Assembly (NCBI GenBank): GCA_964596125.1
Contig: CAZQRP010000007.1
Location: 64,282-128,281 of the forward strand
DNA from: an uncultured Dehalococcoidales bacterium
GTDB lineage: Bacteria > Chloroflexota > Dehalococcoidia > GIF9 > UBA5629
DNA: 64,000 nt
Direction of reading: 5' to 3'
Positions 22,468-54,769 of this stretch are shown here, in pieces. Under the pieces are notes generated by a model. It made no database searches and was not told where the DNA came from. It saw only the letters and a program-made list of their open reading frames with translations. The stretch's first letter is position 1. Every line of letters starts with the position of its first letter. A program made the translations under genes and the position numbers.

Positions 22468-22941
22468 TCAAACCCCTCCTAGGAAAAGTTCATGCTGGTA
22501 CCTGCCCTGTCTGGCATCATACTGGAGTCTGATGCCGATTACCCTGTAGTCCTGCCCTTCCTGGGCGCAGAGGGAATCGTAAATGGTGATGACATCCCAC
22601 AGCTCGACTCCGCAGTGGGGCGGTACCAGGATAAAGCCGCAGTACTGCAGCCTGGTCTTATCGAGGGCTGCCTCTGCAGCGCCGGCAGCCAGGGCAGCAG
22701 TGGCAAGGGAGGGATGCAGCTTGAAGGCCAGGCGCTCACCGACCAGGCCGATTTCAGCGGCATCCTCATCCTCACCGAACACAGGATTGCCCTCAGCATC
22801 ACGGCCGATGATGTACGCCCGGTTGATATCCGGGCTGTCCACCTGGTAGCTGCCATCCAGGATGAAGTGCGGGCGCGACTCCCGGGGGGAGACATTGTAC
22901 AGTCCGCCCGAGGCGGAGTTAAATAGATACTCGTTAAACAT
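22468..22941 (-). CDS. phage protein, unknown function (last gene of the module)
   Basis: 157-aa ORF with the element's composition, following the tail-fibre-like gene. I recognise no family. Confidence 0.5.
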   Translation of the reverse strand: MFNEYLFNSASGGLYNVSPRESRPHFILDGSYQVDSPDINRAYIIGRDAEGNPVFGEDEDAAEIGLVGERLAFKLHPSLATAALAAGAAEAALDKTRLQYCGFILVPPHCGVELWDVITIYDSLCAQEGQDYRVIGIRLQYDARQGRYQHELFLGGV

Positions 22942-22954
22942 GGACTATTTACTA

Positions 22955-23677
22955 TTACTTAACAGCGGCCCAGTAGTACGTCAGGCCGCTGACATTGGCG
23001 CCGTTACCGGCGTTGTTGGATACATAGAAGCTGGTAGCATCAGGGGCAGTCATGTTGTAGTGCGTGCCGCCGCCTGCAATGTCCATGGTGCGGGCCAGGC
23101 CCCTGACGATCATAAACGCCTGACTATTACTGACGATAAAGACCAGCGCCGGCGTGGTGCCCAGGCTGTGAGCAATGGCCCGGTTATCGGTGCCGTCGCC
23201 GGTATAGCTGCCGTAGGTGGCGGCGACCGGTGATGCAGCGGCCCACTTAACGCCCTTCTGCTGCGAGCTGTCCTCCGTCAATACATAGCCGTCATTACCG
23301 CTGACGGGCAGCACGGCGGGGGTATCATCAGCGGTGGCCACCAGGATATCGCCTTTGGCGTCCAGGAGAGCTTTGGCAATTTTGCCATCGATTTCCTCCT
23401 GGAGCTGCTCGATTATGCCGGCGGTGATATTGAGCCTGACAGCATCACCCTGGCTGTGAGCGGCAGCGGCGGTACCTTCCTGGGCCCGGGTGATGGTAAA
23501 GGTATCAGTAGACTTGACGGTGACCTCCATAATCTCATCACCGATGGAGATATGGAAGGGCGCCGAGGGGAAGCGGGCCCCTTCTCCGGCGGCTACCGTC
23601 AGTTCCATAGCTGAATCAGAGATGGCGGCTGCCAGGGTGGAATTGGCATTGTTCTTTACTTCTAACCAGGTTGTCAT
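22955..23677 (-). CDS. phage tail-fibre-like protein
   Basis: From ATG 23677 (stop of the upstream gene at 23679). The N-terminal segment [38 protein letters not shown]...TRAQEGT resembles the conserved N-domain of many tail-fibre proteins. Confidence 0.5.
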
Positions 23678-23678
23678 A

Positions 23679-25526
23679 TCACACTCCTTCCGGGAAAGTG
23701 AAAGCATACACAGGCGCATCGTCTGCCTGGGGGTAGACGATAAAAGCATCGAGGCCTGAGAAATAGATAACATCCGGGACCAGCGCCAGCAGGCGGCGCA
23801 CTACGCCGGCGCCGGACTCGCCGGGGCGGACCTCCAGTTTGGGGTACAGGCTGACGATATCAGAGCTGCGGGACTTATAGGACAGGGTGCCGCCGATGCA
23901 CTGGACCAGCTTACCTATCAAATCATATACCGTGTAATCATCCGAGCCCAGGTTGAACTCCGCCGGTCCGGGGATGGTGTAGCGCTCCAGGAGTCCCCAG
24001 GCATCGATGCAGTACAGGGTGACTGCGGCACGGTTGGGGCTGCGGCTGTAGCGCCAGGACTCCAGGAAGTAATGGTTGCCTCCCGGAGTTTCATCCCCGA
24101 CTTTGTCGGGGCGGTAGCCATAGCCCAGCTCGACCCGGCTGCCCCGCCTGATGTGTTCCGTGGGCAGGTCGGAATAAGCGCCTGCGGAGTTATCCAGGCT
24201 TATGTAAAGCTCGCTGGCGGCCATGGGGCGGACCAGCTCGGTCAGCCCGAGGACCTCCGCCTGCTCAATGGCGACCGAGCCTTCAGCGGCGCCGGATCCG
24301 GCAGCCGGCGTGGGCCAGCAGTCACCCGGCAGCAGTGCCCGCCAGACCTCATTAGCCCGGGTGCCCCAGAGATAGGTACCGTCCTCAGCCAGGGCCAGGC
24401 CGTAAGGGCAATTGCCATTGAGCTTAAACGACTTATTCCAGTCGGCATCGTAGAAGTCCGTGCCCGGGCGCAGCCGGAAAAACCATTTATCCTGGAGCTT
24501 GTACAAGGACAGGACCGGTCCGCCTGAGGCGGGCTTGCAGATAAAGGGAGCATCGACATCCAGGTTGTCGGTGGCACGGGCGGCCAGGATAGCAGCCACC
24601 GTCTCCCAGCTCTCCGGCAAATGGATGTTGTAGAAGAGCTGTCCGGCAGAGGGCTTATGTAAATTGAGCATGAAGTCCCGGTACTCTTCGGCGGCCTGAG
24701 CGAAGTCGCTATAGGGCGTTAGGCGGGCCAGGAACTGCTGCACGAGCTGGTCCTGGTCCAGGGTGGCCCGGCCCAGGTTGAGGTACTGGGTATCGCCCCA
24801 GGTGCCGGCAGCGACCCGGTAGCCGTCGCCGAAGACGATCCTGGCGACCCTTAAGCTGGCGCCGGTATTGATCAGGGCAACGATGTTATAATCGCCGTCA
24901 TAGTACATAGCCAGGCCGGCGATATCCGGAGGGCTGCCATGGGCGGTTGGGGCCAGCCAGTTACCCAGGTTGTTCCTTTTCTGCAGGTTGAGGTTAGCAG
25001 CGCCGCTGTCCGCCCAGGCTATGGCCATCTCGGTATCCGTCTTGTGGCAGGCAGCAATAGCCCGCATGCAGCCGGTAGAGCCGGCGATGGAGGTGGCAGC
25101 GCCGAAGGTTGCCCCGCTGTCGGTGGACTGCTTGTAGTCTATGGCAGCGCCGTCTCCCCTGGTGGCGAAGACTATTACCTCGGCGGCACGGGCGGCGATG
25201 GCATGGGGTGAGCCGTTGAAGCAGGGCAGTAGGCCCGTCCAGTTGGTATAGTCAGACGAGGGGCCCGGGCTGGCCACCCGCTGGTGAAAGACATTGCTGG
25301 TGGGCGCCGACCTGGTGCGGTTCAAAGAGCCATCGGCGGGGATGGCCACGCCATGATAGAACGGGCTGATAGCGTCCGTTTCATACAGCAGCTCCCAGCC
25401 GAGCATACCCCACTGAATGGTAGCCGCCTTCTGGGGATGGCCATACTGGCGGCAGACCAGGCCTACAGCCGGCCGGCGTAACGGCTGCTTCTGAGCGATG
25501 ACCAGGGTATCAGTAAGCGTCTTCAT
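23679..25526 (-). CDS. phage tail / host-recognition protein candidate with an Asp-box-like motif
   Basis: 615 aa, positioned between the lysis-like and fibre genes. The STDSGATFG motif resembles a BNR/Asp-box. Confidence 0.4.
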
Positions 25527-25530
25527 GGGG

Positions 25531-25554
25531 CTACTTAATGCTACTTAATGCTAC
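25531..25554. repeat. perfect 10-bp tandem repeat (CTACTTAATG x2.4) spanning a gene end
   Basis: Read directly. It includes the stop codon of the 145-aa gene, just upstream of the next start. Confidence 0.9.
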
Positions 25555-25968
25555 CTTGAGCAGTTCGGCTGCCATCTCGCCCACCCAGTAGAGCGTCTGG
25601 CGGTTCCGGGGCAGTTTCGACCTCCAGTTGAAGCCGGCGACGACGTGGCCGGCCAGCATGGAGAGATCGCTCACCTTACGCTCGATGCGGGCATAGTCCA
25701 GATAGCTGACGTAATACAGCTCACCCAGGGCCAGCGCCTTATGCTTCAGGTTTGAGAAGCTGCCGCAGCCCGCCTGATTGGTAGGGCAGCCGGGCTCCCT
25801 GACGTTCTCAAGGGCTTCCTGGAAGTTATAGCCCCACTGCCCGGCGAACCTGACATCGGCCTTCATCAGGACATAGTCCCAGAAGGAGACCACATGATCG
25901 AAGTACTCAGCCTGGGTGACCTGGCCGGTATCCAGGGCGGTAAACAGCTCAGTGGAGGGATTGAGCAC
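25531..25968 (-). CDS. phage protein, unknown function; frame stays open upstream without a start codon
   Basis: 145 aa from GTG 25968. The same frame remains open to about 26150 with no ATG/GTG/TTG (see findings). Confidence 0.45.
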   Translation of the reverse strand: MLNPSTELFTALDTGQVTQAEYFDHVVSFWDYVLMKADVRFAGQWGYNFQEALENVREPGCPTNQAGCGSFSNLKHKALALGELYYVSYLDYARIERKVSDLSMLAGHVVAGFNWRSKLPRNRQTLYWVGEMAAELLKVALSSIK

Positions 25969-25994
25969 GCCGTACTTTATGGGCGCCTTCTTCT

Positions 25995-26324
25995 TTACCA
26001 GCTCGTCAAAGGCGTCCAGGTCCCAGGGCGGGGCCGGATCCCGAGTTGAAACCAGCGATACCGGTCCGCCTGAGGCGGACGTAGAGACGGCCTGTGCGTT
26101 ACTGATTTGGGCCTCTGTGGCCTCTGCTGACTTTTCCGCAGTACTTTTTTATTCTTGCCCAGATCCGCCATACCCTGGCCTACGGTAAAGCCCAGGGCGG
26201 GCGCCAGGACCCACTGCCAGTCGATAAATCCCTGGCTGGCGGCATAGACCGAAATGAGCTGGGCTAAAACAGAGCTCCAGAACTTTTTCGACTGATAAAA
26301 CGGTTTTTCTTTGGTATCTGTCAT
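25995..26324 (-). CDS. holin-like small membrane protein (only the N-terminal ~60 aa look genuine)
   Basis: KKFWSSVLAQLISVYAASQGFIDWQWVLAPALGFTVGQGMADLG gives two TM helices. After the A6 run the translation becomes an implausible Arg/Pro-rich tail. Confidence 0.45.
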   Translation of the reverse strand: MTDTKEKPFYQSKKFWSSVLAQLISVYAASQGFIDWQWVLAPALGFTVGQGMADLGKNKKVLRKSQQRPQRPKSVTHRPSLRPPQADRYRWFQLGIRPRPGTWTPLTSW

Positions 26325-26443
26325 TTTATGTTAACCTCCTGATTCACTTAGTTAATGAGAAAGGGCCTCTATTAAATTCATCGACTGATCCCTTCATTAC
26401 TTTATTACGTTCAGCAATGGCATTATGTTAAGCCAGTGGCCAA

Positions 26444-26800
26444 TCAGACCAGGACGGCCAGGGCATCTGGCAGCGGCAGACCGGCCTTGCGGTAATGGGC
26501 AGCCAGGTGAGCAGCGGCAGCCAGGATGACCTGCTCCGGCGCCCGGATACGCTGGCCATCGACTCCCTGCCTGGATATGGCCCGGACTGCAGCCATGACC
26601 AGCTCCCAGTCCACCGTGTGCACCAGGCCGATCTTGCCCTTGATGGCACGGTTGATCTGCCTGGTGTGATGGGGGAGCTGCCAGGTGGCGGGATCATCCC
26701 TGGCAGGGACGATGGCATAGGCCTGCCAGGGTAAATCAGCTTCGCTTCCTAGTGCTTCGCTTTGCTTTACTTCGCTTCGCTTCGGCATATTTTTTGGCAT
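26444..26800 (-). CDS. phage protein, unknown function
   Basis: 118-aa ORF preceded by the hairpin + GGAGG arrangement. Confidence 0.5.
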   Translation of the reverse strand: MPKNMPKRSEVKQSEALGSEADLPWQAYAIVPARDDPATWQLPHHTRQINRAIKGKIGLVHTVDWELVMAAVRAISRQGVDGQRIRAPEQVILAAAAHLAAHYRKAGLPLPDALAVLV

Positions 26801-26812
26801 AATTAACCTCCT

Positions 26813-26827
26813 TCCGCCTAAGGCGGA
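26813..26827 (-). repeat. pre-SD palindromic hairpin TCCGCC-TAA-GGCGGA
   Basis: A 6-bp stem 1 nt from the GGAGG of the gene starting at 26800, flanked by GATCTTCG. Confidence 0.8.
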
Positions 26828-26833
26828 TCTTCG

Positions 26834-27427
26834 TTAGTCATAATCACTATAGAAAAGCGAGCCCTGCTTGAGCCGGCTGCCGGCCTTCCTGATGGCCTTC
26901 TGGAACTCCATGAGCCGGCCGCGGGCCCAGTAGAGATAGTCCCGGTCGACATTTTCACCGCCGAGCGTGGCCTTATTGGTGGAGTACTGGCTCTGCGCCA
27001 GGGTGGCATAGGCACTGGCGCCCAGGGCGATCAGGTCCTCATGGCGGGTGGGAATAGTCGAGGTGGCCCCGTCCAGGGTGTGGACCTTGCTGTAGTAGAT
27101 AGAACAGTTGTTGCCATCTCCCTGTGTTTCCAGGAAGGTCAGCGTGTCCTGGTAGACCTCAAACCTGGCAAACACCCTCGGGGTACTGCCGACCGGAAAC
27201 TCAACCCGGTCAACCCCGACCCTGTCGGGGAGGCTGGAGATATCTACTTCTGTAGAGCCGGCAACGGTGGCCAGGGTGGCCTTCATCTGCCGGGGGACAT
27301 AGAGGGAAAACTCCTTAACCGCCCGGGCGATGGCCCGGTCGATCTCATCATCGGTCCAGCGGTAGTTGGCAGCGTCTTCATCTTTGAGGTCCCTCCGGAC
27401 CAGACCGCGCATTGTTGCCAAGTCCAT
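26834..27427 (-). CDS. phage head-completion / adaptor candidate
   Basis: 197 aa downstream of the capsid genes, preceded by hairpin + GGAGG. The functional guess rests on position only. Confidence 0.4.
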   Translation of the reverse strand: MDLATMRGLVRRDLKDEDAANYRWTDDEIDRAIARAVKEFSLYVPRQMKATLATVAGSTEVDISSLPDRVGVDRVEFPVGSTPRVFARFEVYQDTLTFLETQGDGNNCSIYYSKVHTLDGATSTIPTRHEDLIALGASAYATLAQSQYSTNKATLGGENVDRDYLYWARGRLMEFQKAIRKAGSRLKQGSLFYSDYD

Positions 27428-27441
27428 AGCTCAATCCTCCT

Positions 27442-27456
27442 TCCGCCTCAGGCGGA
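27442..27456 (-). repeat. pre-SD palindromic hairpin TCCGCC-TCA-GGCGGA
   Basis: A 6-bp stem 1 nt from the GGAGG of the gene starting at 27427. Confidence 0.8.
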
Positions 27457-27459
27457 TTC

Positions 27460-27491
27460 GACCTTTATACCAAATGACCTTTATACCAAAT
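27460..27491. repeat. perfect 16-bp tandem duplication (GACCTTTATACCAAAT x2) spanning a gene end
   Basis: Read directly: 27460-27475 equals 27476-27491. It includes the stop codon of the 416-aa gene. Confidence 0.9.
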
Positions 27492-28731
27492 CCAGGGCTA
27501 CCAGGGCGGCAGCACCCGGCGGGGTAAATTCAACATTGAGCACCGGCGCTTTGGCGCTGTCACCGTCATAGCTGTATGCCCTTCTCCAGGTCCAGTCATT
27601 ATTATCACTTCTGTTCTCATGGTCATCCCAGAACAGGACCAGGGAATTACCGTTATTCCAACCGGGACGGTTGACTATCTCCTGGATAATGGCGGTGATA
27701 TCAGGGGTATCATACTCCGCTTCAGCCGACCAGGCCGGTATGTTGTCCCAGTCCACCTGGGCGGCGGTGATATTATCATCAGTGGCGCCGCCGACTACCG
27801 TACCACGCCTGGCCTGGTAGTCCTCGAGAGTGCTGAAGGCGGCAGCATTATCAACAGCCTCGCCGGTGATTCTGGAATTCACCACGGTATTGCCGATAGT
27901 AACCTGTGCGGTAAACCTGATAGAAGCGGCAGTTATCACCGAGCCACGGGGCACGGTGACGTTTTGCCAGCGCATGCCGGAGCCATACTTATACTCGGTG
28001 GCCTGGCCATAACCGGCACGCTCATCGGAGGTGAGAGCGTAGCGCTCCCAGGCTGCACCGGTCCATCTCACCCAGAGGTCATCAGCGCTGGCGCCCACCT
28101 GCCAGGTGGGGTCAACTGCTACCGGCAGGGTTTTACCGGATAGCTGCAGCGACTCGGTGAGCCTGTCCCCTGCTTTCAGAGCATCAACGGCAATGGGCTC
28201 ACCGTTAGCATCCTGAGCGCGATAGACCAGGTGAGACTTGCCTGTTTCCTGAATAGTGAACTCAGCGATAGCCGGAGCAGCGGCTGACTTGATGATACGC
28301 CGGAACTTCACCCGGTCATTCAGGGCTTCGATTACCAGGTCAATCTCCGGATACAGGTCCGGCCAGGTGATCCTGTTGCCGGCGATAACAGGGGACACAG
28401 GTTTGGCCGCTACCACGTCCCCCAGAGCGTTTTTCACCCGGTCCAGCCGGAGAAAAAGCTCCGCCCCATCTTTCCTGGACCTGACCTGAATGGACCTGGC
28501 GGCGGTATCAACCGACAGCTCATAGGGGGCCTTGCTAACACTTAAGATATCGCTTGTGTTAACAAAGACTGGAGCGATCGCCTTCCAGGGCTCCGAGGGG
28601 TCGGCATAATTTTCCTTGTAGTGGATGGCTCCGCCTGAGGCGGACTGCAGCGCCAGACGGCCCGCCTGAGGCGGGTCCTGGAGAAACGTCCGGGAGCTTT
28701 CAGTACGGTAATTTAGCAGCTCCTGCATCAT
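27481..28731 (-). CDS. phage structural protein, unknown function
   Basis: 416-aa ORF whose start overlaps the next gene's stop (ATGA). It contains two in-frame copies of the CCGCCTGAGGCGG palindrome. Confidence 0.5.
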   Translation of the reverse strand: MMQELLNYRTESSRTFLQDPPQAGRLALQSASGGAIHYKENYADPSEPWKAIAPVFVNTSDILSVSKAPYELSVDTAARSIQVRSRKDGAELFLRLDRVKNALGDVVAAKPVSPVIAGNRITWPDLYPEIDLVIEALNDRVKFRRIIKSAAAPAIAEFTIQETGKSHLVYRAQDANGEPIAVDALKAGDRLTESLQLSGKTLPVAVDPTWQVGASADDLWVRWTGAAWERYALTSDERAGYGQATEYKYGSGMRWQNVTVPRGSVITAASIRFTAQVTIGNTVVNSRITGEAVDNAAAFSTLEDYQARRGTVVGGATDDNITAAQVDWDNIPAWSAEAEYDTPDITAIIQEIVNRPGWNNGNSLVLFWDDHENRSDNNDWTWRRAYSYDGDSAKAPVLNVEFTPPGAAALVALDLV

Positions 28732-29096
28732 ACGCCCCTGATGGAGATGGTCCTTTCAGATCCTTCATTTTCGGCGACATCGATCTTGAGGAACTGGGCG
28801 CCGCCGATCCTGACAATGGACGCCCTCTGCTTGGGGATGGCGATATCGGCGGGCACGCCCAGGTACCAGCCGTACAGCGTGGCGAAGGTACCGCCGGACG
28901 CCGCGGCCACCTGGACAGTGGCGGTGGCATTGGTCATGTCCGGCAGGATAATGAGCACCTCATTGAAGGGTTCACCCAGATCCACCTCGACCGATATCGA
29001 AGCACCGTTGGCGATAGTGGCCGTTTTCCAGGCGCTGGTCAGCTTCCTGACCTGCTGGATGGGCCGGCCGTAGTCATCAAATAGCTCGTTTGCCAT
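28728..29096 (-). CDS. phage protein, unknown function
   Basis: From ATG 29096 (MANELFDDYG), with GGAGG at 29105-29109 and a hairpin at 29111-29125. The longer ORF to 29222 just translates the hairpin region. Confidence 0.5.
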   Translation of the reverse strand: MANELFDDYGRPIQQVRKLTSAWKTATIANGASISVEVDLGEPFNEVLIILPDMTNATATVQVAAASGGTFATLYGWYLGVPADIAIPKQRASIVRIGGAQFLKIDVAENEGSERTISIRGV

Positions 29097-29110
29097 AATT
29101 AAAACCTCCT

Positions 29111-29125
29111 TCCGCCCAAGGCGGA
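29111..29125 (-). repeat. pre-SD palindromic hairpin TCCGCC-CAA-GGCGGA
   Basis: A 6-bp stem 1 nt from the GGAGG of the gene starting at 29096, flanked by GATCTTCGAC. Confidence 0.8.
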
Positions 29126-29245
29126 TCTTCGACTGTATGTTGTGGTACGCCGGCGGCGATCCCCGCCACCATACCACTATATTTAGTAATCTCCCACTTA
29201 AAAGTGTAAAGTGTCCATTCACCGTATTAACTTCCCCCCGGGGAA

Positions 29246-29260
29246 TCCGCCTGAGGCGGA
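29246..29260 (-). repeat. intergenic palindromic hairpin TCCGCC-TGA-GGCGGA
   Basis: Same core as the other copies, embedded in a longer imperfect palindrome (CCCCGGGGAA...CTCCCCAGGG). Confidence 0.8.
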
Positions 29261-29283
29261 CTCCCCAGGGAAAGAAAGGAGGT

Positions 29284-29316
29284 AAAAAGAACCTGGGGGG
29301 CGGTGAATTCCCCAGG
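29284..29316 (-). terminator. rho-independent terminator candidate after the capsid/decoration genes
   Basis: On the minus strand, CCTGGGG-loop-CCCCAGG (29292-29316) is followed by a T-rich run (plus-strand AAAAAGA, 29284-29290). Confidence 0.5.
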
Positions 29317-29339
29317 CAGCCGACCTCCCGACTCCCGAT

Positions 29340-29750
29340 TTATGCCGTGCTATCGGCCCGTGCATTCAGGAAAAACAGCACCTTCGTTGCCGACAGGGCT
29401 AGGCCGATGATGGTATTGGCGTCTCCTGCGGTCGACGGCGCTGTCTGGGTGATCTGGCCGTTACTCGAGCCCTCAGCCACGTAGACATAGCCGCCCGGTG
29501 TGGCGCCGGAATAGCCGCCGACCATGGGATTCGGCGACACCGGTATCACATCGCCGCTGGCGCCGTCCTGCAGGGCAACCACTCTGCCCTGGATAACACT
29601 CCCGGTGGTGGCCAGCGCCCGCTTCCAGCCCGAGCTGTAGCCAAGCACATCACTGCGGACACAGGCCTCAGCCAGCGTCACGGTGGGGGCTTCAGGGCCG
29701 ACATTGGAATTCTCGATTATGCGGTTCTTGCCTGGATCTGAAAAAGCCAT
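29340..29750 (-). CDS. phage head decoration-like protein candidate
   Basis: 136 aa, Gly/Ser/Ala-rich and beta-rich, immediately after the major capsid gene. It has weak resemblance to DUF2190-type head proteins. Confidence 0.4.
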   Translation of the reverse strand: MAFSDPGKNRIIENSNVGPEAPTVTLAEACVRSDVLGYSSGWKRALATTGSVIQGRVVALQDGASGDVIPVSPNPMVGGYSGATPGGYVYVAEGSSNGQITQTAPSTAGDANTIIGLALSATKVLFFLNARADSTA

Positions 29751-29775
29751 AGTTTACTCCTCCTTTAGTCCTGCT

Positions 29776-30699
29776 TTAGTCCTTCACCCCGATCAAGGCG
29801 GCGGCCTTCACGGTGCTGAACAACGCCAGTGAGACGTACCACTTTATCCGGGTGCGGTCGGCGTTCTTGGTCTCCATGGGGCCGATAGGCTGCACCTGGA
29901 GCCCTCCGGGGCTGGTCAGCCCGCACAGCCCTCCTTCACCGAACTGGAAGGCGTAGATAGTGGAACTGGCACCGGTGGTATAAGCCGTCTCCACGCTACC
30001 GGCGACCACATGGGTATCCAGGATAAAGTCATTGATGGCGATGGGGATACCGTTGTAGAGCTGGACGAACTCGCCGAGCATCCCCTGGCCGACCTCCAGG
30101 TTGCTGCCGGCAGCCCTGGCCAGGGCGTTTATCTTGCGGCGGGAGCGGCGGCTCATCATCAGCAAATCGGGCTTGCCGCCTTTGACGGCATCGATGAGCT
30201 GGTCGATCATGGTGAGCGTCAGCGTGGCGCCGGCGGCACCGGCGGCGATCACCTGGTCACCGGCGGAACCGGTATCGATTATTTTGATCAGGCCGTCGAA
30301 CTGGTTGGCATCGGCTGAGCTATCGCCATAGAGAAACTTCTCCTCAAGCTCATGCCTGATGGCTTTGGCGGTGATCTCGATAATGGCTGCCTCAATGTCC
30401 TGGATATTGGACCTGGTCTGCTTGATATAGTCGTCCAGGTCGGCGTTCTGCCCCAGGATCTTCAGCGTGGCGGTCTGCTGGCTGAAGGCGATGGCGGGGG
30501 ATGTGGTCCAGTCATCATTGACGGCATGCCATTCCGCCGACGGCAGGGTGGTCTCACGGTTGTAGGTGAGGGCATTACCCACTATCTCGATGAAGGGCAT
30601 GTACTGCAACAGCGGGCAGTCCTTGATTATCTCCTCGATGACGCCTACCAGCAGGGCGTCATTGCTCAGTTTGGCTGCTTCCGATAAAGTTGTGGCCAT
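29776..30699 (-). CDS. phage major capsid protein
   Basis: 307 aa with an N-terminal LSEAAKLSNDALLVGVIEEIIKDCPLLQYMPF pattern common in capsid families. It follows a coiled-coil scaffold and the portal. Confidence 0.7.
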   Translation of the reverse strand: MATTLSEAAKLSNDALLVGVIEEIIKDCPLLQYMPFIEIVGNALTYNRETTLPSAEWHAVNDDWTTSPAIAFSQQTATLKILGQNADLDDYIKQTRSNIQDIEAAIIEITAKAIRHELEEKFLYGDSSADANQFDGLIKIIDTGSAGDQVIAAGAAGATLTLTMIDQLIDAVKGGKPDLLMMSRRSRRKINALARAAGSNLEVGQGMLGEFVQLYNGIPIAINDFILDTHVVAGSVETAYTTGASSTIYAFQFGEGGLCGLTSPGGLQVQPIGPMETKNADRTRIKWYVSLALFSTVKAAALIGVKD

Positions 30700-30717
30700 A
30701 GTCTATAATTCCTCCTT

Positions 30718-30734
30718 TCCCGACAAAGTCGGGA
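30718..30734 (-). repeat. pre-SD hairpin TCCCGAC-AAA-GTCGGGA
   Basis: A 7-bp stem 2 nt from the GGAGG of the capsid gene. Confidence 0.8.
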
Positions 30735-30750
30735 CTAAAATTAACGGGTG

Positions 30751-31266
30751 CTACCCGCTCTTCCTGGCCTGATCCAGGCCGTAGTTTATTTTCTCCCTGG
30801 TGGTCATGGCAGACAGGTCTGCAGGGGTACGCCCCGGAGAGCCGGCAGGCACGTTAGTATTGCTCTGTTGTTGTGCCAAACCCTGCTTTATCTGGCCGAC
30901 TAATGCAGTGGCCTTGTCCACCGATGCTTTGACCTCATCGATAGTACTCCCCTGTACCATATCAGCCGGCAGCACGGGATTGGACTGCAGCACCAGCTCA
31001 CGGTAGGCGGCTACGGCACCTTCATGCTGCGCGGTAAGCGAAGCGAGGCCGGTACCCCGTTCCTCTGCCAGGGCTTTCTGCTGGTCCAGTTCGTCCGTCC
31101 GGGCCTGCAGGTCCGCCTCAAGCGAAGCGATGCGCTCTTTTAAGGGAAGCGCTGCGGCCTCAACGGACTCCTGGACCTTGCTCCTCTCTGCCTCCAGCTC
31201 CGACTTGAGCTGGTCGTACGCCTCCTGGGTGACGGTCTGGTTGTTGGTGTTGTTGTCTTCCGGCAT
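30751..31266 (-). CDS. phage scaffolding protein
   Basis: From ATG 31266 (SD at 31272-31276). Acidic and coiled-coil rich (QLKSELEAERSKVQE..., LEADLQARTDELDQQKALAEE). Lies between portal and capsid. Confidence 0.6.
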   Translation of the reverse strand: MPEDNNTNNQTVTQEAYDQLKSELEAERSKVQESVEAAALPLKERIASLEADLQARTDELDQQKALAEERGTGLASLTAQHEGAVAAYRELVLQSNPVLPADMVQGSTIDEVKASVDKATALVGQIKQGLAQQQSNTNVPAGSPGRTPADLSAMTTREKINYGLDQARKSG

Positions 31267-31290
31267 GTAAGCCTCCTTATACAATTTCGT

Positions 31291-31339
31291 TCCCGACTGT
31301 GTCGGGATCTTCGACCCCGATTTCATCGGGATCTTCGAC
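31291..31339 (-). repeat. two tandem hairpins (TCCCGAC-TGT-GTCGGGA and CCCGAT-TTC-ATCGGG), each followed by GGGATCTTCGAC
   Basis: Lies between portal and scaffold. The GATCTTCGAC flank is shared with the CCGCC-type hairpins. Confidence 0.8.
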
Positions 31340-32751
31340 TATTCCGGTACCTGCTCCATCTCGCCGGCGAAACTATGCTCTCTCTCACCGCCGCGCGTAG
31401 ACTTTGCTCTATACTTCTGGTTCATCTCCAGGATACGGCGCCGCTCCTCCAGCCACTTTTCAAACTCCGCCTGGGGGTCACGGATACCCATCTCGTCCAT
31501 GGCCGTCCTCCTGGAGTGGACGCCCGACTGGACCAGGAGCTGCTCGTTCTGGGCTTCCCGGGCCCTGTCCTGGGGCAGCACCGAGCCCCAGATGATGCGG
31601 TGGTTTACCCGGGTAAGGTCCTCCCTATTGAACTTCTGATGCAACTGGAGGACCATCTTATTACGGGTGGTATAGGCCGCCGTCCTGATGGTCCGTTTCC
31701 GGCGAACCTTCTGGAGCAGCGATTGCAGCTCCACTTCAAGGGCCACGCCCGACAGCTCCCGTTCGATGCCTCCATAGGCCGCCCTGGGGGCCTCGCTGAT
31801 ATCATGGAGGCAGCGGTAAATCATATCGATGTAGTCTATGTGCAGCCTGATGCCTCCCCCCTGGAGCAGGTCCAGGAGATAGGCCTTTGACTCCTCCGGC
31901 AGCGTCCAGACAGCGCCCGGCTGCACCCGGATATCCTCTGAGGACTCCACACCCTCGAGGACGGCAATGGGGTTTCCGGAAACCTCCAGGATACGCGAGA
32001 GCTGCGTCAGCGCACGGTTCAGCTCCCGCTGCGCCTCTCTGAGCGCCGGGATATCCGAGGTACCCCAGAAGTGCTTGGGCTTCCTCAGATTGGGGAATAC
32101 CACAAACGGGATAAAACCGTAGGGGTTCGGCTTGGAGTCTATCAGCTCATTGTCCAGGTAAAGGTCGAACTGCCGGTCCGTCCACAGCTCGGTGAGCATG
32201 GCCGTCTTTTTCTGGATGGTCCTCTGGTGGAGCTGCTCCACTTCATCCCGGGTGAGCTGATACCTGGAGGCGATCCGCCACACCTTTGACAGGTCATCTC
32301 CCAGCCACCAGGCATACAGGCCGTTGACATCCGGGGATGTTATCCGGACCCGCTTTTCCTGGGTGTCCCAGGTGACCTTGTAGCAGCCGTCCCCCAGGAT
32401 GGCTGCATCGACCTCCGTCTCATAGTCCAGCTCCTGGAGGTTGTTTTCCTGGTAGACCTGGTAAATAACGTCTTCCGCCCTGGCTGCCGTCTGCTTTGCC
32501 TGGTCTTCGGCCTTCCCGACTTTCTCGGGACCTTCGGCAACCGGATCGCAGGCGAAGTTGAGCCCCTGCATTAAATAGCTGGTAACCTTGTCGACGGCGA
32601 TCCTGGTGTAGTTGAAGACGAGCTGGCGGTTTCTGGACCTCTCCGTCCACTGCTGGCCCTCGTAGAAGTCCAGGTTGCTGCGGTAGTCGCTGAAGCGGGA
32701 CTTGTCAAGCTGGGCCAGAGACTGGGGATTGAATTCAGTCATGTCCTGCAC
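31339..32751 (-). CDS. phage portal protein
   Basis: 470 aa, first large gene of the head module with an LDFYEGQQW-type N-terminal region. The call rests on size and synteny portal-scaffold-capsid. Confidence 0.7.
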   Translation of the reverse strand: MQDMTEFNPQSLAQLDKSRFSDYRSNLDFYEGQQWTERSRNRQLVFNYTRIAVDKVTSYLMQGLNFACDPVAEGPEKVGKAEDQAKQTAARAEDVIYQVYQENNLQELDYETEVDAAILGDGCYKVTWDTQEKRVRITSPDVNGLYAWWLGDDLSKVWRIASRYQLTRDEVEQLHQRTIQKKTAMLTELWTDRQFDLYLDNELIDSKPNPYGFIPFVVFPNLRKPKHFWGTSDIPALREAQRELNRALTQLSRILEVSGNPIAVLEGVESSEDIRVQPGAVWTLPEESKAYLLDLLQGGGIRLHIDYIDMIYRCLHDISEAPRAAYGGIERELSGVALEVELQSLLQKVRRKRTIRTAAYTTRNKMVLQLHQKFNREDLTRVNHRIIWGSVLPQDRAREAQNEQLLVQSGVHSRRTAMDEMGIRDPQAEFEKWLEERRRILEMNQKYRAKSTRGGEREHSFAGEMEQVPE

Positions 32752-33020
32752 CCCTGATTATTCCGGGCAGAGGCGAGCGCCCGCTGTACTGTCCTCTTGC
32801 TCACCTCGAATATTCGGGCCACTTCCTCCAGACTTTTACCATCTCTCCTCAGTGCTACCATTCGACCAGCCCGGTTCAGCATCCGCAACCTCTGCTTTCC
32901 CCTCGGCTCTTCCTCGATGCACCGCTCCAGAGGACAATTGAGGCATGACGAAAAAACCTCGCATCCTTCATCCTGCCAGTCGATATCGTCAGGCAATAAG
33001 TCCAGCTTGAAAGGGATCAT
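32739..33020 (-). CDS. small Cys-rich HTH protein (regulator or small-terminase-like)
   Basis: 93 aa: CEVFSSCLNCPLERC followed by the HTH GKSLEEVARIFEVSKRTVQRAL. Overlaps the portal start by 13 nt. Confidence 0.5.
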   Translation of the reverse strand: MIPFKLDLLPDDIDWQDEGCEVFSSCLNCPLERCIEEEPRGKQRLRMLNRAGRMVALRRDGKSLEEVARIFEVSKRTVQRALASARNNQGCRT

Positions 33021-46771: not shown

Positions 46772-47953
46772 ATGAAATTAATGGTTATAGGGCTAGGTCA
46801 ATGCGGTTCTCGAATTGCTGATGAATTTGTCCGGCTCGATAAGATGGCGCAAGCACAGCGACACACTAATATAATCACTGGTGCCTTTGCCGTCAATACA
46901 GACCAGGCTGACCTTACCGGCTTGTCTCATATAGGTTCTGATTACATGCATCGTATACTTATTGGTGGGCGCAGAACCTGGGGACACGGTGTCGGCAAGG
47001 TAAATGAGATGGGTGCTGAACTCGCTAGAGAAGACGGTGATAAGGTGATAGACGCCATTAGAACTGCACCCTACTTCTACCAGACTCATGCCTTCATGCT
47101 CTGTGCCGGCGCTGCCGGCGGTACCGGATCGGGAGCAATCTCGATAATAGCCCAGATGATAAAAGAGCGTTACCTGGGCAAACCAGTTTACGCCCTGGTC
47201 GTCCTACCATTCGAGCATGAAGAGGTAGCCGAGCTGAGAAGCGTCTACAACACAGCCGTTTGTCTCAAGTCCATTCATACCGTCGCCGACGGTATATTTT
47301 TAGCAGATAATCAACGTTATGTCAGAAAAGACGCCAGCATGGGCTCGAACCTGAATAGGATCAACAATCAGATTGTTGAACCTTTCTACGATTTACTGTG
47401 CGCTGGTGAGATTACCAAATATAAGCACGTTGGCGCCAAGACGCTGGATGCCGGTGATATAATTCAATCGATCGATGGCTGGACAGCTATAGGCGTTGGC
47501 AGGGCTCAAATACCGCGTGGGTTCCGCTTCCCCTGGGAACTGGCCAAAATTAGCTTCAGGGAAAAGAGCGGTGAAACGCTCAGAGCTATGCAAGCCATGG
47601 ATGCTTCCCTAAGCGAACTTTCCATTAGTTGCAGCCCCGAGGATGCCGGTAGAGCTTTGTACCTGCTGGCAGCTCCAGCCAAGGAAATGAGTATGGATAT
47701 TGCCAAGGGTCTGGGTGATTACCTGCGAGAACTGGCGGAGAATGCTGTCATCAGGGCGGGTGATTTCCCCAGAGAGAAAGGTGCAGTCGACGTTACCGTG
47801 ATGTTCTCTCAATTAGCCTTTGTCCAGAAAATTCGAGACTACTACGATAGAGCATCCGCATTTGCCAATACACAGAAGGACCGCTTAAGAGAAACGTCTG
47901 GAAGGCTGCGTGATATGGAGGACGCGGCCAAAGAGCTGCCGAGTTTGATTTAA
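46772..47953 (+). CDS. tubulin/FtsZ-superfamily GTPase (canonical motifs)
   Basis: MKLMVIGLGQCGSRIADEF (T1-loop-like GxGQxG) and the tubulin signature GGTGSG (nt 47117-47134), with a downstream FLADNQ. 393 aa. Confidence 0.75.
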   Translation: MKLMVIGLGQCGSRIADEFVRLDKMAQAQRHTNIITGAFAVNTDQADLTGLSHIGSDYMHRILIGGRRTWGHGVGKVNEMGAELAREDGDKVIDAIRTAPYFYQTHAFMLCAGAAGGTGSGAISIIAQMIKERYLGKPVYALVVLPFEHEEVAELRSVYNTAVCLKSIHTVADGIFLADNQRYVRKDASMGSNLNRINNQIVEPFYDLLCAGEITKYKHVGAKTLDAGDIIQSIDGWTAIGVGRAQIPRGFRFPWELAKISFREKSGETLRAMQAMDASLSELSISCSPEDAGRALYLLAAPAKEMSMDIAKGLGDYLRELAENAVIRAGDFPREKGAVDVTVMFSQLAFVQKIRDYYDRASAFANTQKDRLRETSGRLRDMEDAAKELPSLI

Positions 47954-53662: not shown

Positions 53663-54769
53663 TTATTTACTATCTCTACCCGATTTTAACGTCTGGGCCG
53701 AATCAACCGCCCTATCGTAATAACTCTTAACCGTTTCCACATACGTCAAACCAGAGAGAACCAGAGTAACCTGAGCACAATCTTTAGCCCCATAAAAATC
53801 ACCGCCCCTTATTTCAGCATTGTTGGTTAATTCTCGCAGGCGGTTCCCCAGCGTTTTAACCATGTCCACATTTGCTCCCTTAGCAGGGATAGAAAGAAGA
53901 TAGAGAGCTTTGCTGGCATCCTCTAATGCGAAGTCAATCGAGAGTCTCCCCAGAGCTGCATTCATAGCCTCAAGGGTTTTGGTTGTTTCCGAGCCTTTCT
54001 CCTGAAAGCTCTGTATCGGTTTCAGAAAAGACTTTGATACAGGAAATTCTGTTGTACCAACGCCTATCGCTGTCCAACCTGATAAAGTTTGCAGCATATC
54101 GCCAACGCCCAGGTTCCTGAATCCGGCATATTTCGGGCCAACCTCTTCACTGGCACAAAAAAGGTCATAGTAAGGAAAGACTATTTCCTTATTTATATCG
54201 CTCATATCTTCAATCGATGTAGCTTTTCTTTTGAATTTAAACTTCTCGTTATCAACCAGGAACACCGCATCCGCTATCTTATGAATGGACTTCAGGCAGA
54301 CTGCCGTATTATAAATACATTTGTGTTTGGCTGTTTCGGATTCAAAGGGAAGAACAATGAGTGCATAGATCGGTTTGCCTACATGGCGGTCTCTGAGTTG
54401 CTGAGCCAATATTGGGACTCCTCCGGAACCGAGGTTTCCGGCAGAACCAGCGACGAATAAAATGGCATCAGTATCATAATAATCGCTTGCCTCTACCACG
54501 GTTAAAACGCGGCCACCTTCTTCACGCATAAGCTCGGCACCAGCCTCAGCCAGTTTATCTGTATCTTCAAGAGAACGACCGATAGCAATAGTCCGCAGGT
54601 CCCTATGATCTGCTTTAATCGATTCGAGGCTAGCTTTATCGTTATTTACTGCATAAGCATTAGTAATTATTTGAACACGACGCTCAGCTTTCGCCCGTTT
54701 GTTTAACTCGGTGAATTCACCGGCTAATCTAGAACCACAATTATCAACACCAATAACTAATAGCTTCAT
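53663..54769 (-). CDS. tubulin/FtsZ-superfamily paralogue with degenerate nucleotide-binding motifs
   Basis: Clear paralogue of 46772-47953 (shared YNTAVCLKSIH, GWTAIGVG, YAL[IV]VLPFE). The motifs read GVDNCGSRL and AGNLGSG instead of GLGQCGSRI and GGTGSG. Confidence 0.7.
   Translation of the reverse strand: MKLLVIGVDNCGSRLAGEFTELNKRAKAERRVQIITNAYAVNNDKASLESIKADHRDLRTIAIGRSLEDTDKLAEAGAELMREEGGRVLTVVEASDYYDTDAILFVAGSAGNLGSGGVPILAQQLRDRHVGKPIYALIVLPFESETAKHKCIYNTAVCLKSIHKIADAVFLVDNEKFKFKRKATSIEDMSDINKEIVFPYYDLFCASEEVGPKYAGFRNLGVGDMLQTLSGWTAIGVGTTEFPVSKSFLKPIQSFQEKGSETTKTLEAMNAALGRLSIDFALEDASKALYLLSIPAKGANVDMVKTLGNRLRELTNNAEIRGGDFYGAKDCAQVTLVLSGLTYVETVKSYYDRAVDSAQTLKSGRDSK

Follow-up and report, generated by a model that had tools for sequence, protein, structure and literature searches.

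Why do short, perfect, GC-rich palindromes crowd one phage-derived gene cluster in a bacterial genome, some pressed against Shine-Dalgarno (SD) sites and others lying within the genes themselves? The question arises from a 64,000-nucleotide stretch of contig CAZQRP010000007.1, from an uncultured Dehalococcoidales bacterium, which we analysed whole and call the window. Fifteen such palindromes of two stem types, type A (CCGCC-N3-GGCGG) and type B (CCCGAY-N3-RTCGGG), all fall within 22.9-32.5 kb of the window, in a minus-strand cluster of phage structural genes, and neither type is present in the window's 53 kb of flanking host DNA. Our answer, held with only a little more confidence than doubt, is that they are miniature repeats of the kind represented by repetitive extragenic palindromes (REPs) and miniature inverted-repeat transposable elements (MITEs). 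They are over-represented, confined to this block, present in some genomes and absent from others at orthologous sites, built on cores that larger repeats share and, in a tagged form, widely distributed.

Nine type A copies were observed where whole-window shuffles lead us to expect 0.03 and a second-order Markov model of the GC-rich block alone 0.07, and five type B copies stand against expectations of 0.02 and 0.002 (second-order Markov, block), with one further type B variant at 32514. With 15 copies against an expectation well under one in the shuffles and the Markov model, a chance origin is rejected, as is a CRISPR array, the spacing running from 24 nt to 1.9 kb and following gene junctions; the initial annotation, which had denied that these were CRISPR repeats, was correct on this irregular spacing. 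It had also counted eight copies of CCGCC-YNA-GGCGG, all of them correctly placed, and overlooked a ninth at 22903-22917; its three hairpins of a second stem type (30718, 31291 and 31316) are real, and to them must be added 24095-24111, 27214-27230 and the variant at 32514-32530. The stems are perfect, 5-7 bp long and closed by a 3-nt loop, giving elements of 15-17 bp, or 23-25 bp where a short tag precedes them. Type B copies have a 7-3-7 geometry and type A copies a 6-3-6 geometry, and seven of the nine type A copies are perfect 7-1-7 palindromes (TCCGCC-T-N-A-GGCGGA). Pair-preserving steps connect the stem types (TCCGCC, CCCGCC, CCCGAC, CCCGAT). Seven copies are intergenic and eight intragenic, the latter comprising five of type A and three of type B.

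The same gene junctions can be followed through 75 related loci (L001-L075) from Dehalococcoidia/Chloroflexota metagenome-assembled genomes (MAGs) and IMG/VR in which gene order is kept; cultured phages, whose nearest major capsid proteins (MCPs) have less than 40% identity, are unusable for comparing junctions. Junctions that hold hairpins in the window are often empty in the relatives. The portal-scaffold junction is 19-21 nt long in L024, L032, L045 and L062, the scaffold-MCP junction is 2-6 nt in most relatives, with no hairpin and with the SD inside the scaffold gene, and the junction between MCP and gene g29340 is 17-26 nt in L002, L059-61 and L069. Counted over distinct loci, the portal-scaffold junction has a perfect GC hairpin of 6 bp or more in 33% of cases, the scaffold-MCP junction in 29% and the g26834-g26444 junction in 10%, and any GC hairpin at the junctions that carry one in the window is found in only 6-33% of relatives. 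In other relatives these junctions are filled by different palindromic repeats, each typically multi-copy within its own locus: the GTAG-tagged ATGTAGY-GCAGGGC-TTTA-GCCCTGC has 5-6 copies, mostly just 5' of SDs, in L032, L053 and L060; GTAG-GGGCGGGTT-TTTA-AACCCGCCC has ten copies in L033, in both orientations relative to transcription; and further examples are CGTAGGGGCGTACCTTCAGGTGCGCCC, GTCATTGCGAGG...GGCAATC, GTCATTCTGAGCGAAGCGAAGAATCTC and CCCCTCTCC...GGAGAGGGG-CAGGGGTGAGGTGA, as well as AT-rich arrays. Presence and absence are thus polymorphic at orthologous sites, both at these empty or filled junctions and at an insertion within the portal gene. In L030, L031, L034-L038, L044, L046-L050, L061 and L070, the AT-rich arrays (TTTGGAATTTGG..., TTAGGATTTAGG...) stand before the MCP gene and g29340 and end in a small hairpin, ACTCC-GCA-GGAGT, predicted to sequester the SD itself.

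Both stem types also recur in the relatives as the apical hairpins of a larger composite repeat, ATTGCGA-core-GTGGCAAT, of which we found 68 elements with 18 different cores, always paired. The cores include GTCCGCC-TCA-GGCGGAC (identical to the window copy at 26064), TCCGCC-TCA-GGCGGA, CCCGAT-N3-ATCGGG and TCCCGA-N5-TCGGGA. Some composite elements lie in host DNA beyond the phage cluster (L002 at 5.9-6.1 kb, L017 at 16.0 kb), and it is within the composite repeat of L017 host DNA that the 17-nt core of 26064 recurs identically. The window contains no copy of the composite repeat, and a literature search on its sequence returned unrelated primers only. The tag that precedes five window copies, (G)TCGAAGAT, appears by inference from its CGAAG-ATC sequence to resemble the composite 3' arm, CGAAGCAATC.

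The tagged form reaches well beyond these relatives. The pattern GAAGAT-CCGCC-N3-GGCGGA occurs in at least 120 metagenome contigs, with GC of 0.35-0.74 among the matches listed, and among those matches, with duplicates removed, TC comes directly before the pattern in 45 of the 116 distinct contexts, where 6% would be expected, which establishes TCGAAGAT plus hairpin as a genuine and widespread unit. The metagenome contigs that contain it are many and unrelated; an outer stem occasionally encloses it, and in these contigs it shows no fixed orientation relative to neighbouring open reading frames (ORFs); in L142 it follows a 5S rRNA gene. The viral contigs L205 and L206, distantly related to the cluster, hold a type B unit with its tag and, just upstream of an SD, another type B hairpin; among relatives they alone share the tagged type B form with the window. 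A scan of viral contigs for a hairpin plus SD gave single, unrelated matches only. The metagenome contig L173 (9813-13684) has three-unit arrays of CCGAAGAT-CCGCC-GYA-GGCGG-G with a 22-nt period, recurring between three large ORFs, and also one partly degenerate array.

In the window itself, the intergenic copies are as follows, in the direction of transcription.

31316-31339, minus strand: tagged unit 1, (G)TCGAAGAT with CCCGAT-GAA-ATCGGG, beginning at the final base of the portal stop codon.
31291-31315, minus strand: tagged unit 2, GTCGAAGA with TCCCGAC-ACA-GTCGGGA, in tandem with unit 1 at a 24-nt period.
30718-30734, minus strand: untagged type B hairpin TCCCGAC-TTT-GTCGGGA, adjoining the SD of the major capsid gene (start 30699).
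29233-29273, minus strand: 19-bp hairpin of -37.6 kcal/mol (z -5.2) whose apex is the type A copy 29246-29260.
29111-29133, minus strand: tagged type A unit GTCGAAGA-TCCGCC-TTG-GGCGGA, adjoining the g28728 SD (start 29096).
27442-27462, minus strand: type A unit with shortened tag, GTCGAA-TCCGCC-TGA-GGCGGA, adjoining the g26834 SD (start 27427).
26813-26833, minus strand: type A unit CGAAGA-TCCGCC-TTA-GGCGGA, between the g26834 stop and the g26444 SD (start 26800).

Four copies adjoin a strong SD, three as GGCGGA-AGGAGG and one as GTCGGGA-AAGGAGG. The initial annotation had described one arrangement for these four junctions, with a common flank, and its order of hairpin, 1-2 nt, GGAGG and start codon is seen at all four, with 12-18 nt from hairpin to ATG; the flank is not common to them, being exact (GATCTTCGAC) only at 29124, 31306 and 31330, where in mRNA sense it precedes the g28728 hairpin and the tandem pair of hairpins before scaffold, degenerate at 26800 (AACGAAGATC) and 27427 (GTCGAA-TC), and absent at 30699. 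The tag marks only five of the 15 copies (exact at 29125, 31307 and 31330, ACGAAGAT at 26827 and GTCGAA at 27456), the other ten having none. From CGAAGAT to the end of the ATG, the two cassettes that precede g28728 and g26444 differ very little (37 nt; the second at 26798-26833). In predicted RNA folds the junction hairpins come to about -10 kcal/mol and leave the SD unpaired, and unit 1 forms a 9-bp stem by pairing with GTC of the next unit. Unit 2 lies 14 nt 5' of the scaffold SD (AAGGAGG). The SD itself is an ordinary AGGAGG, common to genes that have no hairpin. Our promoter scan found no sigma-70-like promoter beside any copy, a terminator scan gave nothing associated with the hairpins, and neither the window block nor 11 tagged-unit loci gave any relevant Rfam match.

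Two further features of these junctions deserve mention. The segment 31264-31326 concerns the scaffold start: the longest ORF begins at an ATG (31326) inside a type B hairpin loop, and the N-terminal extension so encoded is false and owed to the palindromes, homologues and SD alike indicating the ATG at 31266. At 27460-27491 a 16-nt sequence, GACCTTTATACCAAAT on the plus strand, stands twice in perfect tandem; the duplication copies the g27481 3' end and stop codon, and in mRNA sense the type A unit at 27442-27462 follows it directly.

Inside genes, where only four copies had originally been counted, there are eight.

32514-32530, minus strand: type B variant TCCCGA-GAAAG-TCGGGA inside portal, reading EGPEKVGK.
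28661-28675, minus strand: type A, CCCGCC-TCA-GGCGGG, inside g27481, reading DPPQAGR.
28630-28644, minus strand: type A inside g27481, reading QSASGGA.
27214-27230, minus strand: type B, CCCCGAC-AGG-GTCGGGG, inside g26834, reading LPDRVGV.
26064-26080, minus strand: type A, GTCCGCC-TCA-GGCGGAC, in the linker of the split gene g25995 + g25531, reading TSASGGP in the corrected frame.
24519-24533, minus strand: type A inside g23679, reading KPASGGP.
24095-24111, minus strand: type B, CCCCGAC-AAA-GTCGGGG, inside g23679, reading RPDKVGD.
22903-22917, minus strand: type A inside g22468 at codons 9-13, reading NSASGGL.

Four of the five intragenic type A copies read xASGG (26064 in its corrected frame, the frame first read there being probably wrong) and one PPQAG, and the three type B copies all give P-D/E-x-V-G. 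Within genes the loops are TCA and TCG, and between genes TGA, TTA and TTG occur as well, because in the ASGG frame TGA, the loop in its opposite orientation, would be a stop codon. The view that copies inside genes had been inserted in frame holds for some of them only. The portal copy is an insertion that adds 8 aa in frame when compared with homologues about 80% identical, and at the same site L003, L007, L026, L042 and L043 hold other in-frame palindromic elements, such as VIARSAATKQSP and GPDKIG. Insertion is partial in g27481, whose copies add 3 aa (28661) and 1 aa (28630) relative to 14 homologues and partly overwrite the existing sequence (the homologues read xSIGAIHYK at the 28630 site), and in an indel-prone loop of g23679, where the copy at 24095 adds 2 aa relative to most homologues. 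At 22903 the alignment is ambiguous, with a difference of 0 to 3 aa. The remaining comparisons gave the result that the initial annotation had itself named as evidence against insertion: the copy at 24520 aligns without a gap to 40 homologues (ASLGA and similar), and that at 27214 causes no length change, its homologues reading LTDRVSV with the conserved D-R-V lying within the palindrome, so that a 9/14 match became a perfect copy through about five base changes, T>P and S>G among them. The portal loop (32500-32545; L003, L007, L026, L028, L042, L043) is an insertion hot spot in its own right, with up to about 36 extra residues in L003 and L026.

If the palindromes are REP/MITE-like, they would be the bare core hairpins, five of them with the short tag, of a palindromic repeat family common in Dehalococcoidia and other environmental bacteria. 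Such hairpins could have entered short spacers between stop codon and SD by insertion, the loop of a pre-existing hairpin at 29246 and, in at least one case, a permissive protein loop in frame (portal), and some intragenic copies may have been made or homogenised with no change in length, presumably by short-patch conversion from other copies. Copies would adjoin SDs because in a 20-nt junction almost no other place takes 15-25 extra bases harmlessly. Intragenic survival would be limited to frames that give harmless peptides (xASGG, PD/ExVG) and no stop codon. Mobilisation was probably by hairpin-recognising single-strand DNA transposition or recombination supplied in trans. On the polycistronic mRNA, we infer that a hairpin of about -10 kcal/mol beside a free SD would act at most as a mild intercistronic stabiliser or insulator. 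The selfish mini-repeat, one of several roles first proposed, thus gains from the empty and refilled junctions, the unit in unrelated contigs and the 8-aa portal insertion; in-frame insertion does not hold generally.

Several observations weigh against the REP/MITE-like reading. The copies are perfect and have almost no decayed relatives (a search for decayed copies found a sole near-match, at 31112), which suggests a recent burst or selection. At least two copies (27214 and 24520) are not insertions, and a perfect copy reached through about five substitutions, as the alignment at 27214 indicates, is no less consistent with selection for the site than with selfish spread. In size the elements fall short of described REPs, in tag they match neither the GTAG nor the CGTC type, chromosome-wide spread is not seen in the 64-kb window, with no copies in the 53-kb host flank, and none of its about 40 ORFs has a transposase domain. 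Three junction cassettes share hairpin, SD and spacer and could be a selected module, and the five tagged copies all point the same way with respect to transcription. The sequence occurs only in three sediment-metagenome DNA runs, as a search for RNA evidence showed, and in contigs of these runs no hairpin has indel or presence/absence variants. It is the two non-inserted copies, the few decayed ones, the missing window transposase and the departure from formal REP definitions that keep our confidence only just above even.

The competitor that survives best, although we regard it as unlikely, is a selected RNA module, in which a hairpin 0-2 nt 5' of a strong SD is a functional part of the polycistronic late mRNA. 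The hairpin could keep the SD unpaired, as an insulator or standby structure, and a cut in the single-stranded GAAGAU tag could leave it capping the downstream 5' end and the upstream 3' end and so confer gene-specific stability. Such a module would account for the four hairpins that adjoin AGGAGG with the SD free in predicted folds, for the tag, hairpin, SD and spacer common to three cassettes, two of them nearly identical over 37 nt, and for the sense orientation of every tagged copy; L032, L053 and L060 have their own hairpin directly 5' of SDs, as do L205 and L206, the stem differences (TCCGCC, CCCGCC, CCCGAC, CCCGAT) are compensatory, and a CGAAAT motif after stop codons recurs in the family. 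However, the same junctions lack a hairpin in 67-94% of relatives, more than half of the copies are intragenic and distant from any SD, both orientations occur in L033 as well as among metagenome contigs, Rfam matches nothing relevant in the window block or the 11 tagged-unit loci, and of the four junctions with an adjoining SD three have unremarkable fold z-scores (+0.2 to -2.0).

The cluster contains an internal control for what a conserved structure looks like. A GC hairpin follows g29340 in about 86-100% of relatives, being present in nearly all of 41 distinct loci with 10-14 bp, 30 different arms and loops of 7-12 nt; the SD-adjacent hairpins, at 6-33%, are not patterned as conserved structure on this comparison, and a dedicated SD-linked function, as first suggested, finds no support in that frequency. 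The copy at 29246, which had been grouped with the mini-hairpins beside SDs, in fact occupies the loop position of this family-conserved hairpin, as the apex of its 19 bp. The second hairpin of this spacer was described sequence by sequence, since MAFFT could not align the variable hairpin for RNAalifold, and its tolerance of G.T versus A.C pairs, which bears on RNA- versus DNA-level selection, came to 35 versus 38 and favours neither. The spacer as a whole (29230-29339, minus strand; L001-L075) has two parts, the first an SD-like AAGGAG/GGAGG, an inner hairpin and an anti-SD-like CCTCC(T), the second the GC hairpin, with arms that vary but always pair and loops that are often C-rich with CCTCC. 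Despite its lack of a U tract, it probably serves behind the capsid genes as a terminator, attenuator or stabiliser.

If the palindromes act as DNA, they may instead be duplex sites for a dimeric protein, by analogy with what has been proposed for the 17-bp 7-3-7 repeats of Cluster O mycobacteriophages, a reading that we consider quite improbable. Candidate binders are the helix-turn-helix (HTH) protein encoded at 32739-33020 or a host protein that would silence or organise the element. Perfect dyad symmetry and invariant half-sites are what such a protein would see, the 1-nt loop of the seven 7-1-7 type A copies is not explicable as a hairpin, intragenic copies have arisen by substitution with no indels as with parS-like or operator sites, the copies are confined to the cluster, the HTH protein is conserved at the operon start, and both the geometry and the mix of intergenic and intragenic sites match Cluster O (PMC4351075). 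Against this, two site types need two specificities, relatives whose HTH proteins are 50-66% identical have unrelated repeats or none, the cores and tagged units also occur in unrelated genomes and in larger REP-like repeats, and the central triplets of type B are asymmetric.

We give little credence to a further possibility, that the palindromes were written in by directed, length-neutral conversion, or selected as sites for a lineage-specific factor acting on hairpin-plus-SD modules, so that each phage lineage would keep its own hairpin "code" at gene starts; it would explain perfect substitution copies in conserved codons, the lack of decayed copies and the single hairpin type of each lineage.

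Still more doubtful is the idea that junction repeats serve as short homologies for gene swapping, by analogy with the PeSL cassettes of T4-type phages, which would suit g28728 and g27481 (the only cluster genes without homologues in the 75 relatives), bracketed as they are by the type A units 29111-29133 (almost identical to the cassette 26813-26833) and 27442-27462 within g29340-g26834, the most variable region of the family (104 nt to 1.9 kb), but the hairpins have no promoter motif, most copies are not beside variable DNA, 15-25 nt is very short for homologous exchange, and the Cluster O analogues are not at rearrangement points (PMC4351075). Intrinsic terminators are rejected (no U tract, 6-bp stems), as are RNase III sites (stems too short), a kink-turn or other named RNA motif in the tag (no fit) and a frameshift stimulator for the A6 run at 26145-26150 (hairpin about 65 nt downstream, too far).

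Placed among known systems, the palindromes appear to be a variant of the phage short palindromes and of the REP and Rickettsia palindromic element (RPE) kinds, smaller, differently tagged and, as far as the window shows, confined. The REP enzyme RAYT (REP-associated tyrosine transposase) is a Y1 HUH transposase, and none is encoded among the about 40 window ORFs. Like GTAG/CGTC-tagged REPs, the window elements are short palindromes, rich in GC, that carry on one side a conserved tag left unpaired (PMC3733652); they are multi-copy, lie mostly between co-directional genes near the upstream stop, are sometimes tandem, nested or intragenic, and are replaced by different families in related genomes, with genuine GTAG-tagged repeats occupying the corresponding junctions in several cluster relatives. 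Reported REPs include ones that provide stop codons, ones close to ORF ends and ones within genes (PMC3733652). The differences are that REP palindromes are imperfect and 20-40 bp long, whereas here stems are perfect, of 5-7 bp with a 3-nt loop and 15-17 bp overall, that the tag is TCGAAGAT in place of GTAG/CGTC and precedes only five of 15 copies, and that eight of 15 are intragenic and all are confined, within the window, to an 11-kb cluster. The likeness to RPEs and intragenic REPs is that of in-frame palindromic insertions at permissive sites, with portal hit by elements that differ between lineages; RPEs are, however, about 100-150 bp, against at most 8 aa added here, and several intragenic copies here are not insertions.

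Among phages, Cluster O mycobacteriophages have 17-bp 7-3-7 inverted repeats of unknown function, and the 34 copies in Corndog are divided into 14 intergenic, 10 near ORF 5' ends and 10 intragenic (PMC4351075), while Microbacterium Cluster EG phages have 18-bp repeats of unknown function 14-22 bp upstream of start codons (PMC7302621). Shared with these are the 7-3-7 geometry, invariant arms, many copies per genome and a distribution over intergenic gaps, ORF 5' ends and ORF interiors; sequence and host phylum differ, the actinophage repeats are conserved across their cluster whereas the 75 relatives here carry others or none, and the cores here are shared with larger repeats in host DNA. PeSLs are likewise repeated stem-loop junction cassettes that bracket lineage-specific genes (PMC2839356, PMC4122927), but they are longer and pair a terminator-like stem-loop with an early promoter, and no promoter was seen here. 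The start-associated sequences (SAS) and their extended form (ESAS) of Cluster K and EF actinophages resemble our case in a motif at or just upstream of the ribosome-binding site in a subset of genes and in an upstream extension with inverted repeats (PMC3203893, PMC7302621); SAS is itself the ribosome-binding region and linked to a start in every copy, whereas here only 4-5 of 15 copies are start-linked.

The shared cores, empty sites and wide distribution link phage-type short palindromes to REP-like composite repeats, and this REP/MITE link suggests a testable origin for the so far unexplained actinophage palindromes of Clusters O and EG. A Dehalococcoidia capsid cluster colonised by repeats that also occur in the host DNA of relatives is what would be expected of a long-resident element. 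For annotation, such palindromes yield false ORF extensions (scaffold at 31326), short added peptides in structural proteins, and marked junctions and insertion hot spots, and the stop-hairpin-SD cassettes are natural examples of a hairpin tolerated beside a ribosome-binding site.

The cluster that holds all 15 copies consists of about 13 co-directional minus-strand genes in a block (22.4-33.3 kb) of 54-62% GC, against 44-48% in the flanks. Its features, from upstream to downstream, are these.

22468-33020, minus strand: the phage-derived structural gene cluster as a whole, identified by PHROG and Pfam matches.
32739-33020, minus strand: small HTH protein at the head of the cluster.
31339-32751, minus strand: portal.
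30751-31266, minus strand: scaffold, start ATG 31266.
29776-30699, minus strand: MCP.
Downstream of MCP, minus strand: g29340, g28728 and g27481, in that order; g27481 homologues carry a tail-protein annotation.
After g27481, minus strand: g26834, g26444, g25995/g25531 and g23679, in that order.
22955-23773, minus strand: tail-fibre-like gene.
Most downstream in the cluster, minus strand: g22468.

Ordinary host genes directly adjoin both sides, a MeaB GTPase and a response regulator on one and immunoglobulin-like (Ig-like) surface proteins, CTP synthase, transaldolase and Rho on the other; L002 and L024 have the same Ig-like neighbour gene as the window. The cluster has no large terminase, integrase or replication genes. 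In other relatives, a 426-497-aa ORF lies between the small protein and portal, with a Terminase_6C match in L033 only and no Pfam match for the L013 and L016 ORFs. The window cluster looks like a vertically inherited, terminase-less capsid and tail-fibre set, whether a remnant, a gene transfer agent (GTA)-like element or a satellite-like one.

The window genes g25995 and g25531 (25531-26324) correspond to a single 291-aa ORF in L002 and are joined only through a -1 frame change at AAT-AAA-AAA-G (A-run 26145-26150). The split could be a homopolymer error, a true frameshift mutation or ribosomal slippage, and translation of the 109-aa ORF probably departs from the listed sequence in its C-terminal half. 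Elsewhere in the window, two ORFs (46772-47953 and 53663-54769) match a tubulin/FtsZ GTPase domain and a CetZ C-terminal domain on an otherwise Dehalococcoidia-like bacterial contig, the CetZ family having been described mainly from archaea.

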